From: a virus
Lineage: Duplodnaviria; Heunggongvirae; Uroviricota; Caudoviricetes
Direction: 5' to 3' (one strand)
IMG/VR virus record: IMGVR_UViG_2713896779_000027
DNA length: 4,011 nucleotides
How positions within the stretch are numbered: the stretch's first letter is position 1; each line of letters opens with the position of its first letter. Below, piece after piece: positions 1 to 4,011 of the stretch. Both the position numbers and the translations under genes were made by a program. A model generated the notes under the pieces. That model worked only from the letters and a program-made list of their open reading frames with translations, had not been told where the DNA came from and did no database searches.

Positions 1-185
1 GGCTGTTCCTGCTGAACGTTGTTATCAGCCACACGCCAGGTGTATACGCTTTTATCAACGAAGCCAGCCTTTTTCAGTTCCCACAGCTCGTTCAGTACTT
101 CTTCACGACTGATATCAAGTCGCGCAGCCAGCTCTACCGACGTGGCTTTTCCCATCGCTTTCAGTGCGTCAAAAACAGTCTCCAT
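1..185 (-). CDS. hypothetical small protein, 5' portion only (stop lies beyond the left edge); possibly winged-helix, weakly Ren-like
   Basis: ATG at 185..183 with GGGAGG (197..192) 6 nt upstream. Hand translation of the minus strand is open for 61 codons to position 1: [61 protein letters not shown]. Lies directly 3' of the P-like gene. Absent from the ORF track because the stop is outside the window. Confidence 0.55.
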
Positions 186-218
186 AAATTTCCTCCCGGT
201 AAAAAATCACTTCTCAAC

Positions 219-884
219 TCAAACAAAACCAGCCGCTTTCCGGCGTTCATATTCCTGTTTCAGCAACTCAATTGGCGTTGGCCCCGACGGGCGTTTGGGG
301 GCCGCCAGTTGTCGCCGGACTGGCGGAACGCTCAGGCCGTTACTAACATGCTTTGCCCATTTCGTCAGTTGCCGTTCTGCAAGCCGTTTTAATTCCCCTT
401 CGGTCATCTGGCGCTCAATCCCCTTTGAACGCATCTCGAGGCAAATGTGATACAGCACAGGCTGAGACCACGGGTACTTATCACTTCCGTCGTATCGCCA
501 GGACTCATTGCGCCAGCGGCGGTACTCCTCCATCACAGCATCCACCGTCAGACCGAATGGATTGGCTCCGCTTTTCGAAATCAGTGCCACAAACTCAGCC
601 AGGTCCGGAGGCCATGTTTCACCCGCCCGGCAGCGGTCCATGCACTGGCGGCAGACCTGCCGGATTTGCTGCTCAGTCATCGCGCCAATCTGTGCAATCC
701 AGAGCTTCGAAGGTGCGGCCCCGTTCTTCTGGGTCCAGCGGTTCGAATAAACCACCCCCATGAGTTCCCACAGCTTCCAGGCCGTTTCCGTCGCTGATAA
801 ATCCGTTTTCACGTTCCCACTGCTCACGTGCTGCCCGAATTTCCTGAACTGCCCGTGATGCGGTGCCACCTGGTGCTGCTGCAT
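219..884 (-). CDS. lambda P-like replication protein (helicase loader)
   Basis: 221-aa ORF. The C-terminal ~150 aa (from MTEQQIRQV...PDLAEFVALISK... through ...KYPWSQPVLYHICLEMR...ELKRLAERQL... to the end) aligns by eye with lambda P as I remember it (...GQFVAWCREEA...SYPWKSNAHYWLVTNLY...ELRRKAADEL...). AAGGGG sits 5 nt upstream of the ATG at 884. The start is uncertain: from 884 the gene overlaps the upstream O-like ORF by 212 nt; alternative in-frame ATGs are at 761 and 680, the latter giving an ATGACTGA start/stop junction with the O-like stop. Confidence 0.8.
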   Translation of the reverse strand: MQQHQVAPHHGQFRKFGQHVSSGNVKTDLSATETAWKLWELMGVVYSNRWTQKNGAAPSKLWIAQIGAMTEQQIRQVCRQCMDRCRAGETWPPDLAEFVALISKSGANPFGLTVDAVMEEYRRWRNESWRYDGSDKYPWSQPVLYHICLEMRSKGIERQMTEGELKRLAERQLTKWAKHVSNGLSVPPVRRQLAAPKRPSGPTPIELLKQEYERRKAAGFV

Positions 885-1713
885 GGTTTACCCCTTTGCT
901 GACTGGTTTAACCTGCGCCCTGACGTGATTTACGTGACGGGCGAATTTCTGCTCCCACTGAATCTGCGTAAACACTTTCCCCTCCGCTGCCCAGTAGTCC
1001 CGGAAGGCGGCAAGTTCAGCAGGTGTAAATTCTGTCTCCGGCAAAGCCATCCCCCACAACGCAGCCCGTCGTCGAAAATCCCGTGACGGATACCAGCTAT
1101 CGCTCATCGGGAATTTTCCGATGGGTTCGCTCAGGCCATACAGGAATACAGGGGGGGCTGCCTGTAACGACAAAACTTCCTGCTCACTGGTCGGAGCACT
1201 CTCGCGTGCGTTATGTGTGGGGTTTAGATCTTTGGGTTCCTTTGGGTTCCGTGATCCGTTTTTGGGTGTCTTTGATGGAAAATTTGGGTGTCTTTGGTTA
1301 TTTTCCATGCAGCTAAGAGTTCTGTTTTTGGGTCTGTTTTGTGCTGAAACATAACCATTTTCGGTACTGTTTTTATTAACAGCACCAATTTTACCCACCT
1401 TTAAAGACTCCCGTTTTTGGGTGTATTCAGGCTCGGCAACACTTTCTTCTACACCGATAAGTCGGTACACCACAATTTGCTTTGTTCTGCCTTTTCTCTC
1501 ACCGGTATCAACAATTAACCCAATCTCCATCAGGTGTCGTAAGCTGTCCTGCACAGTCTTTTTGTTCAGTTCCGTTACTTCTGCCAGTGCAGATACAGAC
1601 GGGTATGCACACAAATCGGCACCGCACATATCAGCAAGCCAGGTCAATACTGACTTACTGGATGAACTGCCGGTTTTCACCTTTTTAGCCCATCGTAGTG
1701 CATCGATACTCAT
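673..1713 (-). CDS. phage replication initiation protein, O-like in function (N-terminal HTH domain, iteron-bearing linker, C-terminal domain)
   Basis: Long minus-strand ORF (track: 673..1788). N-terminal region (...SVLTWLADMCGADLCAYPSVSALAEVTELNKKTVQDSLRHLMEIGLIVD...) matches the winged-HTH pattern of phage replication initiators. A Pro/Lys-rich linker (TPKNGSRNPKEPKDLNP) is encoded by the repeat array. Lies between the cII-position gene and the P-like gene. Start placed at the internal ATG 1713..1711 (MSIDALRW...), which has AGGGG 7 nt upstream and overlaps the upstream gene by only 29 nt; the 1788 start would overlap it by 104 nt. Confidence 0.8.
   Translation of the reverse strand: MSIDALRWAKKVKTGSSSSKSVLTWLADMCGADLCAYPSVSALAEVTELNKKTVQDSLRHLMEIGLIVDTGERKGRTKQIVVYRLIGVEESVAEPEYTQKRESLKVGKIGAVNKNSTENGYVSAQNRPKNRTLSCMENNQRHPNFPSKTPKNGSRNPKEPKDLNPTHNARESAPTSEQEVLSLQAAPPVFLYGLSEPIGKFPMSDSWYPSRDFRRRAALWGMALPETEFTPAELAAFRDYWAAEGKVFTQIQWEQKFARHVNHVRAQVKPVSKGVNHAAAPGGTASRAVQEIRAAREQWERENGFISDGNGLEAVGTHGGGLFEPLDPEERGRTFEALDCTDWRDD
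1231..1428. repeat. iteron-like direct repeats inside the O-like gene (candidate prophage replication origin)
   Basis: Six copies of a TTTGGGT core, starting at 1231, 1241, 1261, 1283, 1327 and 1416. Includes a perfect 10-bp tandem TTTGGGTTCC x2 (1231-1250) and a perfect 14-bp direct repeat TTTGGGTGTCTTTG (1261-1274 and 1283-1296). Spacings of 10, 20, 22, 44 and 89 bp are close to multiples of the helical repeat. An AT-richer stretch lies between 1340 and 1410. Lambda ori is likewise an iteron array within the O coding sequence. Confidence 0.6.
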
Positions 1714-2236
1714 ACGAACCCCTGGCAGACATTTGTTTATCTGCAAAGTAATATTGGTATTGCTGACGATACGCGTGCTTGAAAGCAATAGCTTTTTCTA
1801 TAAGCTCGTCAGTCTCACGTTCCACAACAACTGGATCCGCAAAAAGCAGCCCGGACTCCACCACATCGCCATATTCTTTGTTTAACCCGGCGATCATGTA
1901 CGTAATGCTTTTTCCGTCAGTAATTTCACAATACAATCTGAAATCGCTGATCCGGATAGCCTCCATAATTGCCGGAATCTGCGCCGTGAATTTGTCACGC
2001 TTATCTCTGGTGTCGATAGCTTTCCAGCGTTCGAATATCTTCACCCGGTTAACGCCCAGCGCCCGTTGATCAACCTCGCCATCATTAAACGTGACGCGTT
2101 GAACATCGATGTTCGGGCGTTCTTTCAGAGCCCAGAATGCTTCCGTGATTAATATCGTCGCCTGCTCCTGTGTCATTCCTGGTCGGCATACCCAGGTATC
2201 CAGAGCCTCACAAACCTGTTCAGTGGTGATTTTCAT
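1685..2236 (-). CDS. hypothetical early-operon protein in the cII position (possibly YdaT-like CII analogue)
   Basis: 183-aa ORF immediately downstream of the Cro-like gene (17-nt overlap) and upstream of the O-like gene. Translation looks protein-like with no low-complexity runs. The only start support is a weak GGGG about 10 nt upstream of the ATG at 2236. Function is assigned from position only; the family call is a tentative recollection. Confidence 0.6.
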   Translation of the reverse strand: MKITTEQVCEALDTWVCRPGMTQEQATILITEAFWALKERPNIDVQRVTFNDGEVDQRALGVNRVKIFERWKAIDTRDKRDKFTAQIPAIMEAIRISDFRLYCEITDGKSITYMIAGLNKEYGDVVESGLLFADPVVVERETDELIEKAIAFKHAYRQQYQYYFADKQMSARGSYEYRCTTMG

Positions 2237-2447
2237 TGTTCAACCGCCCCGCCCGCTTTGCCTTACGATATTCGTCATAAACTTTGGGGTCGTACTGAAG
2301 TTCCCCGCCGGATGCCTCTTGCAGGCGCATCGCGCGACCTTCAGGAACCAGTTCCCCCCATGCAGCAACGCTTGCCAGCCTAACTCCTGCGACATTGGCA
2401 AGCTTTGTTTTGCTGCCAAAAAACGCTATAGCATCAATTTTCAACAT
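2220..2447 (-). CDS. Cro-like transcriptional regulator (P22-Cro/DicC type)
   Basis: 75-aa ORF divergent from the repressor gene. The motif ...IDAIAFFGSKTKLANVAGVRLASVAAWGELVPEGRAMRLQEASGGELQY... matches the P22 Cro pattern (...VIDHFG...AVAKALGIS..AVSQW.EVIPEKDAYRLEIVTAGALKY...). AAGGGG sits 7 nt upstream of the ATG at 2447. A TTGACT/TAGTTT promoter with interleaved operators lies upstream. Confidence 0.85.
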   Translation of the reverse strand: MLKIDAIAFFGSKTKLANVAGVRLASVAAWGELVPEGRAMRLQEASGGELQYDPKVYDEYRKAKRAGRLNNENHH

Positions 2448-2457
2448 ATCGAACCCC

Positions 2458-2522
2458 TTAGATTTTCCTAAGAAAACTAGATCGTAGAGAAACCTAAGTC
2501 AAGAAAAATTAGAATTACCTAA
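2458..2522. promoter_or_regulatory. OR-like operator region: three TTAG-N6-CTAA palindromic sites between divergent repressor and cro genes
   Basis: Site 1 at 2458-2471 is TTAGattttcCTAA, site 2 at 2484-2497 is GTAGagaaacCTAA (reverse complement TTAGgtttctCTAC), site 3 at 2509-2522 is TTAGaattacCTAA. Centre-to-centre spacing is 26 and 25 bp. The sites interleave with both promoters' -35/-10 elements, as OR1-3 do in lambda. Confidence 0.6.
2474..2502 (-). promoter_or_regulatory. PR-like sigma70 promoter for the cro-like operon
   Basis: On the minus strand, -35 TTGACT (2502..2497), a 17-nt spacer and -10 TAGTTT (2479..2474). Operator site 2 fills the spacer and site 1 lies just downstream of the -10. 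A candidate divergent PRM-like -10 TAGAAT (2510-2515, plus strand) sits inside site 3 and would give a leaderless or near-leaderless repressor mRNA (ATG at 2524). Confidence 0.5.
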
Positions 2523-2523
2523 T

Positions 2524-2931
2524 ATGAAAAACGAAACCTTCGGTGCTCGCCTCTTATACAGGCGAAAAAAATTAAAACTGTCTCAGGCCGCATTAGGTAA
2601 GCTGGTCAAAGTGGCTCACGTAACAATTTCTCAATGGGAAAGAGATGAAACACAGCCAGCGGGGAAGAGATTATTCGCACTGAGCCAGGCGCTTCAGTGC
2701 TCGCCGACTTGGCTTCTTTTTGGAGATGAAGATAAGCAACCAGGCGAACCGATCCCAGATAATCAGCCAGTCAATCTGACAGAAGATCAAAAAGAGTTGC
2801 TTCAACTGTTCGACGCACTGCCTGAGTCAGAGCAAAAGGCTCTGTTGTCAGAGATGCGTGCTCGAGTTGAGAATTTCAACAAACTTTTTGAAGAACTACT
2901 CAAAGCTCGCAAAAGAAGCGCAAATAAATAA
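2524..2931 (+). CDS. dicA: DicA-like HTH (XRE-family) prophage repressor, CI functional analogue without an S24 peptidase domain
   Basis: 135-aa ORF. N-terminal HTH (...LSQAALGKLVKVAHVTISQWERDETQP...) and a C-terminal segment (...LFALSQALQCSPTWLLFGDEDKQP...LPESEQ...EMRARVENFNKLFEELLKARKR...) closely resemble E. coli Qin DicA as I recall it (...LFALSKVLQCSPTWILFGDEDKQP...LPESEQ...EMRARVKNFNKLFEELLKARQR...). Divergent from the Cro-like gene and flanked by operator clusters. The symbol denotes a homologue, not necessarily the K-12 Qin locus. Confidence 0.9.
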   Translation: MKNETFGARLLYRRKKLKLSQAALGKLVKVAHVTISQWERDETQPAGKRLFALSQALQCSPTWLLFGDEDKQPGEPIPDNQPVNLTEDQKELLQLFDALPESEQKALLSEMRARVENFNKLFEELLKARKRSANK

Positions 2932-3006
2932 CCCCCCTTTTTTTCGCAACTCTCTGTAATAAAAAGCACAAACTTTCAAATACTTGTGTTTTTTACATCA
3001 AGAAGC

Positions 3007-3059
3007 TTAGGTTTTTCTACACAAAAAGCTTGACCATAACTCTTAGGTTATTCTAAATT
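3007..3059 (+). promoter_or_regulatory. OL-like operator pair with candidate PL-like promoter downstream of the repressor gene
   Basis: Site at 3007-3020 is TTAGgtttttCTAC; with its 5' C (3006-3020, CTTAGGTTTTTCTAC) it matches the reverse complement of OR site 2 at 14 of 15 positions. Site at 3043-3056 is TTAGgttattCTAA. Between them is TTGACC (3030-3035), with TAAATT (3054-3059) as a weak -10 at 18-nt spacing overlapping the second site. Orientation is inverted relative to the OR sites, as OL is to OR in lambda. Confidence 0.5.
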
Positions 3060-3138
3060 CTACTCATCAAGACACCGCACGGTGTTCTCAGCAAACAGTT
3101 CCGCTACCCGGCGTTAAGGGGAAGCAGAGGATTTCTCA

Positions 3139-3290
3139 GTGGGCGAAGTCAAACATCAGAATGGAAGGCGTCCAGGGATCAGCAAAGAAACAGCGATGGC
3201 GCTTTATATTGATATCAGCGCCATTGCCGGACAGGTAAGAGTTATCAGAGCGGTAACTAAGCGGTATGCGCCTTTACTTCAGAAAGTCTC
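3139..3290 (+). CDS. hypothetical protein, N-terminal fragment interrupted by assembly gap
   Basis: GTG at 3139 with GAGGA (3127-3131) 7 nt upstream. Frame is open for 50 codons up to the N-run (VGEVKHQNGRRPGISKETAMALYIDISAIAGQVRVIRAVTKRYAPLLQKV). Contains AGG/AGA codons, typical of phage accessory genes. First ORF downstream of the candidate PL-like promoter. No recognisable family, so it may not be a real gene. Confidence 0.35.
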
Positions 3291-3340
3291 NNNNNNNNNN
3301 NNNNNNNNNNNNNNNNNNNNNNNNNNNNNNNNNNNNNNNN
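3291..3340. other. run of 50 N: assembly gap or masked sequence
   Basis: Fifty consecutive n characters, directly visible. True length and content are unknown, and the two flanks may not be contiguous. Confidence 0.99.
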
Positions 3341-3432
3341 ACCAATTTCCTCTCGAGTAACAGACCCCTCAGAGGATACCACCTCGCCTGACGTGGTTAA
3401 AAAGCAGGCAACGCTAACCACAAGGAGCCGAC

Positions 3433-3651
3433 ATGCAGAAACGAGACCCCGTCATCATCGCGCCAGACTATACCGATGATGAACTTTATGAGTGGATGCA
3501 CCAGAAAATTAAGGCGGTGCAGGACCTGAAATGGGCCAATGAAGCCAGGGCTAAGCAGGCTGAAAATCTGTCCGCTCTGGAGCAGGATATCACCAATCTG
3601 GAAAAAGCAGCGGCATTAAGCATTGCCAGAATGATTACATACCTGAGGTAG
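3433..3651 (+). CDS. hypothetical 72-aa protein, probably 3'-truncated by the IS insertion
   Basis: ATG at 3433 with AAGGAG (3422-3427) 5 nt upstream. Translation MQKRDPVIIAPDYTDDELYEWMHQKIKAVQDLKWANEARAKQAENLSALEQDITNLEKAAALSIARMITYLR is helical/coiled-coil-like. The stop (3649-3651) falls within the first bases of the inferred IS left end. No family recognised. Confidence 0.6.
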   Translation: MQKRDPVIIAPDYTDDELYEWMHQKIKAVQDLKWANEARAKQAENLSALEQDITNLEKAAALSIARMITYLR

Positions 3652-4011
3652 CCTGAGTTTAACGGACACTCCTTCCTGAAATAGAATGGCATCAGAAGGA
3701 GCTAATAATGAGCAGAAAAACCCAACGTTACTCTAAAGAGTTCAAAGCCGAAGCTGTCAGAACGGTTCTTGAAAATCAACTTTCGATCAGTGAAGGCGCT
3801 TCCCGATTATCTCTTCCTGAAGGCACTTTAGGACAATGGGTTACCGCCGCCAGAAAAGGGCTCGGTACTCCTGGTTCCCGCACGGTGGCTGAACTGGAAT
3901 CTGAAATTCTGCAACTGCGTAAGGCGTTAAATGAAGCTCGCCTTGAGCGAGATATATTAAAAAAAGCAACAGCGTATTTTGCACAGGAGTCGCTGAAAAA
4001 TACGCGTTAAT
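3644..4011 (+). mobile_element. IS3-family insertion sequence, left end and orfA (element continues beyond the right edge)
   Basis: orfA-type transposase gene with the characteristic HTH N-terminus and leucine-zipper C-terminus, followed by an A7 run (3959-3965) typical of the IS3-family -1 frameshift site. The -1 frame stays open to the window end. Left terminus inferred at TGAGGTAGCC... (3644), with GGACAC at 3664-3669, by analogy with IS3-family inverted repeats that begin with TG. The boundary could instead be at the TGAG at 3654. Confidence 0.7.
3708..4010 (+). CDS. IS3-family transposase OrfA (IS600/IS911-like architecture)
   Basis: 100-aa ORF MSRKTQRYSKEFKAEAVRTVLENQLSISEGASRLSLPEGTLGQWV...LESEILQLRKALNEARLERDILKKATAYFAQESLKNTR. 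Same layout and C-terminal ...ILKKATA...SLN..R motif as IS911 OrfA from memory. AAGGAG (3695-3700) 7 nt upstream of the ATG. Slippery A-run just before the stop. Confidence 0.9.
   Translation: MSRKTQRYSKEFKAEAVRTVLENQLSISEGASRLSLPEGTLGQWVTAARKGLGTPGSRTVAELESEILQLRKALNEARLERDILKKATAYFAQESLKNTR

Follow-up and report, generated by a model that had tools for sequence, protein, structure and literature searches.

Can a gene be entered by an insertion sequence (IS), finish on a stop codon that the IS supplies, and still encode a protein of its normal length? This question is raised by a short open reading frame (ORF) in the IMG/VR virus record IMGVR_UViG_2713896779_000027, of which a stretch of 4,011 nucleotides (hereafter, the window) was analyzed. 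A sequence-only reading of the window placed the terminus of an IS at position 3644, assigned the final Leu-Arg-stop of the ORF to the IS, and concluded that the native protein must have been longer and is now truncated. To answer the question, the identity of the ORF, its native 3' end and the exact limits of the IS need to be established, along with the fate of the genes located on the other side of the element.

The Interrupted Gene

As to the identity of the ORF (Table 1), it had been described as helical and charged, which holds, and as unlike any family that could be named, which does not: it is YdfC. The exact 72-aa product is named “protein YdfC” in RefSeq (WP_001171901.1 in NZ_CP022407.1), it matches PHROG 1744 over all of its positions (1–68 of 68, E 9e-39), it is 92–99% identical to three phage YdfC alleles, and a homologue search returned 102 database clusters, many named YdfC, with a dominant length of 72 aa. 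Similarity to the YdfC proteins of phages and of Escherichia coli K-12 extends over the full length, and identity to the close alleles exceeds 90%. At the nucleotide level, megablast of positions 3341–3643 against phage records gives 100% identity to the “PPompW” prophages of EHEC O145:H28 and 96–98% identity to several temperate Escherichia phages, and the matched phage and prophage records annotate the ORF as ydfC or “YdfC family protein.” The gene is present in 3075 of the 5426 complete E. coli genomes, in up to 5 copies.

As to its function, the Pfam and NCBIfam scans returned no family for YdfC, PHROG 1744 has no function assigned, and a profile search against PDB sequences yielded nothing significant, only weak matches to designed coiled coils (E ≥ 0.11). 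No function is reported in the literature, where YdfC appears as a small dicBF operon protein whose function has yet to be assigned (PMC5069750), and in a preprint in which a YdfC-GFP fusion was evolved into an artificial yeast transcription factor, the wild-type fusion being inactive. The lack of a Pfam or NCBIfam model and of an experimentally reported function might be taken to mean that the ORF is not a gene, and that the IS sits in a non-coding spacer of an early-left transcript. We consider the chance of this very small, as the ORF has a strong Shine-Dalgarno sequence (the near-consensus ribosome-binding site was correctly recognized from the outset), it belongs to an existing PHROG family, it is annotated as a gene in both K-12 and RefSeq, and its relatives in 95 representative clusters (E ≤ 1e-3) keep the N-terminal motif and the helical region despite their divergence.

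Some features of the protein can be outlined from its sequence and from a structure model. A conserved N-terminal motif, EPxIIAPxYTDDELYEWM, is followed by one long amphipathic helix, and AlphaFold2, with an alignment of 17 sequences, models a single helix spanning residues 15–69 (mean pLDDT 86.8), with residues 70–72 being non-helical and of lower confidence than the helix. The motif and the helix together suggest a small coiled-coil protein of the early phage program, probably one that binds a partner. The 95 relatives were recovered by a profile search among 1.84 billion representative proteins, and their matches mostly span profile positions 1 to approximately 66, the tails beyond varying in both length and sequence. 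Across this wider family, a motif of the form EPxIIAxGxxxxELxxWM and the long helix are kept. Some relatives carry variable C-terminal extensions (up to 193 aa), and no Pfam domain was found in the ten longer relatives scanned (130–193 aa). YdfC is a widespread early phage protein, to whose function the window adds nothing.

TABLE 1. Features of the window discussed in the text (L004, the matching chromosomal locus of strain 16-9255).
Feature	Position	Strand	Remarks
P-like gene; DnaT/O-like replication gene; YdaT-like gene			lambdoid immunity/replication context of ydfC
P22-Cro-like gene		-	immunity region
DicA/cI-like repressor gene	2524..2931	+	HTH_3 match; annotated dicA in phage/prophage record
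Promoter-like TTGACC-18-TAAATT	3030..3059 (L004 5555-5584)	+	promoter scan; between operator-like CTTAGGTTnTTCTA repeats
Shine-Dalgarno AAGGAG of ydfC	3422..3427	+	5 nt 5' of ATG, read from sequence
ydfC ORF	3433..3651	+	ATG start, 72 codons, then TAG; ends ...ITYLR
Left target-site duplication copy, ACC	3641..3643	.	right copy outside window, L004 7568-7570
IS600, left 368 bp	3644..4011	+	full element 1264 bp, runs past window; left inverted repeat starts TGAGGTAGCCTGAG
IS-derived bases finishing ydfC	3644..3651	+	TG of Leu71, AGG (Arg72), TAG; native here CA CGT TAA
IS600 orfA	3708..4010	+	100 aa; HTH_Tnp_1 (PF01527, E 1.5e-20); first frame of frameshifted transposase

The Prophage

The window is 100% identical, outside a run of Ns, to a locus (L004) on the chromosome of the STEC O121:H19 strain 16-9255 (NZ_CP022407.1). 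The run of 50 Ns (positions 3291–3340) replaces 185 real bases (L004 5816–6000). It falls within an ORF of 118 aa located 5' of ydfC (phrog_21318, no assigned function), and so this ORF looks artificially short in the window. The surrounding genes are those of a lambdoid immunity and replication region, and over positions 1–3290 the PPompW prophage LC567818 differs from the window by 6 mismatches only. Operator-like CTTAGGTTnTTCTA repeats and their inverted copies are found on both sides of the dicA-like gene (positions 2457–2522 and 3006–3062), as expected for the OR/OL-type operators of an immunity region. The DnaT/O-like replication gene, which is on the minus strand, contains iteron-like direct repeats (positions 1231–1296 and 1249–1427), one a unit TTTGGGTGTCTTTG repeated three times and the other a 24-nt, GTTTTTGGGT-containing unit, also repeated three times; these probably mark the replication origin of the prophage.

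The arrangement matches that of the Qin cryptic prophage of K-12, dicC-dicA-ydfA-ydfB-ydfC-dicF-dicB-ydfD (PMC5069750), in which ydfC (b1573), encoding 72 aa as it does here, occupies the third place in the dicBF operon, ydfA-ydfB-ydfC-dicF-dicB-ydfD. As in K-12, ydfC lies 3' of a dicA-like repressor gene and an early-left promoter, and 5' of a DicF-like RNA and dicB; this placement between a dicA-type repressor and dicF/dicB is seen both at L004 and at an uninterrupted locus, L001, whose order matches that of K-12 (L005). By analogy with the dicA-ydfABC-dicF-dicB arrangement of K-12, the promoter-like site 3' of the dicA-like gene (Table 1) probably serves as the early-left promoter, of the dicB type, and would drive the 118-aa ORF and ydfC. 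Three differences from K-12 are apparent. The 118-aa ORF replaces ydfA and ydfB, an ORF of 135 aa is present between ydfC and the DicF-like RNA, and ydfC owes its two final codons and its stop to IS600 (P71L, TAG versus TAA). The window thus belongs to a Qin/P22-immC-like lambdoid prophage of STEC O121:H19, and ydfC to the early-left operon of this prophage, which is of the dicBF type and repressed by DicA.

The Insertion Sequence and Its Termini

When the window is aligned with three uninterrupted alleles, no difference is seen through position 3643, and the sequences part at position 3644; this divergence point, together with the same ends being found in other copies of the element, bears out the terminus that had been proposed from the letters. 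The right end and the target-site duplication, the search for which had been recommended, were located as well: at L004 the IS runs TGAGGTAG...ACACCTCA (TGAGGTAGCC... to ...GTACACCTCA), measures 1264 bp, and has ACC on both flanks. The element is annotated in RefSeq as an IS3-like element IS600 family transposase, with a joined coding sequence and a programmed frameshift, and it possesses the properties of the family. Its size is as expected (approximately 1.26 kb), its termini are TG...CA, with imperfect terminal inverted repeats, its target-site duplication is of 3 bp (ACC/ACC), and the orfA match along with the RefSeq annotation indicate the typical orfA (HTH)/orfB (DDE) organization expressed via a programmed -1 frameshift. 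The ends read TGAGGT...ACCTCA, and the left and right inverted repeats agree at 6 of the 6 terminal bases and over a CGGACACT block.

Five other IS600 copies, inserted at unrelated sites (L007–L011), agree with this one in their terminal bases and in their length of 1264 bp. At three of the five, 3-bp duplications are present (ATC, TCC, and TAC); at the other two no matching duplication is seen, which suggests a later rearrangement. The left flanks of the six copies (L004, L007–L011) look alike (ACATACC, ACATCC, CACATAC, CATATCC, ACAATC), and such similarity among independent insertions hints at a target preference.

Some sequence elements internal to the IS may also be mentioned. A promoter-like sequence, TTAACG-17-TAGAAT, is found inside the left end (positions 3659–3687). 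An imperfect hairpin can be drawn between CTCCTTCCTGA (positions 3669–3679) and TCAGAAGGAG (positions 3692–3701), in which the Shine-Dalgarno sequence of orfA would be paired, the -10 element being in the loop; because of this position of the -10 element, read-through transcripts could mask the ribosome-binding site of orfA while transcripts of the IS itself would not. The hairpin is present in the minimum-free-energy fold, yet this fold is no stabler than those of shuffled sequences (z -0.5). A hybrid outward promoter at the right end of the IS was considered and rejected: TTGCCA (L004 7552–7557) is followed, after 17 nt, by TTAATA, which agrees with TATAAT at 2 of 6 positions, and the site was not called by the promoter scanner.

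Length of the Fused Protein

Uninterrupted alleles, the other search that had been recommended, are on record, and from these the sequence preceding the insertion has been rebuilt. The empty site at L001 reads ATTACATACC CACGTTAA, and when the IS and one copy of ACC are removed from L004, zero differences remain over 1200 bp in comparison with the O145:H28 PPompW prophage (LC567818). The pre-insertion sequence is thus known exactly, ...ATT ACA TAC CCA CGT TAA TAG C.... The native part of ydfC comprises codons 1–70 plus the opening base of codon 71, the remainder being from IS600, so the assignment of the final Leu-Arg-stop to the IS was correct. In terms of mechanism, IS600 entered codon 71 just behind the initial C of CCA (Pro) and duplicated ACC, and the ydfC frame now continues across the junction as (C)TG-AGG-TAG, turning Pro-Arg-TAA into Leu-Arg-TAG.

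As to the proposed truncation, it is only in the origin of the stop codon, which truly belongs to the IS, that a longer native protein with a prematurely supplied stop finds support. Native ydfC does not extend past the IS-derived stop. In the phage and prophage records it encodes 72 aa, ending ...ITYPR (CCA CGT TAA), and its own TAA occupies the very codon position now occupied by the TAG of IS600. The PPompW prophages (LC567818 and relatives), which carry no IS here, end ydfC with Pro-Arg-TAA. K-12 ydfC is of 219 nt and 72 aa with the YPR ending, as are most of the full-length homologues in the 102 clusters, and 72 aa is the dominant length of the family. Intact homologues therefore end at the same residue, the very finding that had been named beforehand as refuting a truncation, and the probability of a truncation is close to nil. 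The IS-fused YdfC is not truncated: it is of the normal length of 72 aa, and its sole change is P71L, the C-terminus reading ...ARMITYLR in place of the ...ARMITYPR typical of the family, the difference at residue 71 being due to the IS.

How much of this outcome is accidental? The first 13 bases of the left end of IS600 (TGAGGTAGCCTGA, positions 3644–3656) contain a stop codon in each incoming frame (TGA at bases 1–3, TAG at 6–8, and TGA at 11–13), and so any host ORF entering this end would terminate within four codons. A quick stop after the junction is therefore little of a coincidence; the landing of the new stop on the position of the native one, by contrast, is a matter of chance, set by where the element inserted.

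Of the 5426 complete E. coli genomes, 6 contain the exact ydfC-IS junction, and half of these carry an O121 or O121:H19 label. Records of the exact LR allele come from 71 contigs filed as “Escherichia coli O121,” and those of the PR allele from at least 999 contigs. Other variants of the 3' end (P0106, P0002, and P0105) are also on record. A form of 74 aa, represented by 168 contigs, ends ...TYHVNS, as would be expected from the loss of 1 bp in the CCC run. A form of 69 aa, labeled “partial,” is represented by 284 contigs, and these calls are probably draft contigs breaking at this IS600. An 87-aa variant, P0002 (locus L006), at first resembled another IS insertion at this site, but it contains no IS and is a deletion fusion adjacent to dicB.

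Significance of the Change at Residue 71

Even with the length kept, P71L might inactivate or alter YdfC, making the insertion in effect a loss- or change-of-function allele, and proline is indeed the commonest residue at this position among the close homologues. We hold this to be unlikely. Residue 71 is proline in the majority of the natural homologues, but it is glutamine in others (P0014, P0026, P0036, and P0042) or leucine (P0064, ending ...HLR), and some divergent homologues (P0073, P0084, and P0086) end at residue 70 or 71, lacking the Pro-Arg tail altogether. In the structure model the tail is non-helical, with a confidence lower than that of the helix, and the remote relatives are not conserved past approximately position 66. 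Based on the variation at residue 71, the variable tails and the non-helical tail of the model, we infer that the LR and native alleles are equivalent in function, and YdfC with P71L is most likely still functional.

Probable Effect on the Operon

The more probable biological effect of the insertion concerns not YdfC but the genes that follow it. At L004, the IS is followed, in order, by the 135-aa ORF (phrog_1363), the DicF-like RNA, dicB, a DUF1482 (ydfD-like) gene, an exonuclease gene, an excisionase gene, and a frameshifted integrase gene. The DicF-like RNA (L004 8554–8603) scores 43.5 bits (E 9e-8), just under the Rfam gathering score of 48, and so it is read as a diverged copy of DicF that is missed at the default threshold. 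In K-12, a single transcript from the DicA-repressed promoter covers these genes, and DicF is released from it by processing (PMC5069750). The 1264 bp of IS600, in the same orientation as the operon, now part the 118-aa ORF and ydfC from the 135-aa ORF, the DicF-like RNA, dicB, the ydfD-like gene, the exonuclease, xis, and int. As IS600 sits between ydfC and the downstream genes, the expression of the latter should fall or become uncoupled, and such polarity, judged by analogy to K-12, is probably a more consequential effect than the change in YdfC. A scan across the IS for intrinsic terminators on the plus strand found none, and so transcripts that start at the operon promoter or in the IS may read through.

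IS600 has multiplied in O121:H19, one strain carrying 27 copies, and one precedent for its effects in this lineage is lacZ::IS600 of STEC O121:H19, in which gene inactivation results in delayed lactose utilization (PMC9397093). The ydfC insertion involves the same element in the same lineage, and it is a typical 1264-bp copy, with TG...CA ends, a 3-bp duplication and orfA/orfB joined by a programmed frameshift. Unlike the insertion in lacZ, it is so near the stop that the length of the ORF survives. In O121:H19, elements of the IS3 family can be excised with help of the IS-excision enhancer IEE (PMC9397093), and so the insertion in ydfC may be reversible. One could further imagine that the insertion has been kept for its very site, as a selectively favored “domestication” cut, possibly reversible via IEE-mediated excision. 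Full-length YdfC and the promoter-proximal genes would then be retained, with the toxic DicF-like RNA/dicB and exo/xis/int being cut from the DicA-controlled promoter, and YdfC alone would be beneficial to the host. We regard this scenario as quite improbable.

Conclusion

Overall, the ORF is read here as ydfC of a Qin-like prophage, entered by IS600 at codon 71, its length kept and P71L acquired, with the splitting of the operon as the likelier effect, and we hold this combined account with high confidence; no evidence contradicting its structural part, the ydfC-IS600 fusion, was encountered. The components are all of known kinds, including ydfC, IS600, the Qin/P22-immC-like prophage and the O121:H19 lineage, and RefSeq already pairs YdfC with the adjacent IS600 transposase. 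The only new detail is that IS600 supplies both final codons and the stop codon without a change in length, which is a curiosity and a caveat for annotation and does not imply a new mechanism. The caveat is that a stop codon supplied by a mobile element does not necessarily mean a truncated ORF: as the end of IS600 restores the stop at its native position, annotation pipelines rightly call a full-length YdfC. The detail matters little beyond correct annotation. For the biology of O121:H19, the point of interest is the effect that IS600 may have on the downstream DicF-like RNA, dicB and the recombination genes.
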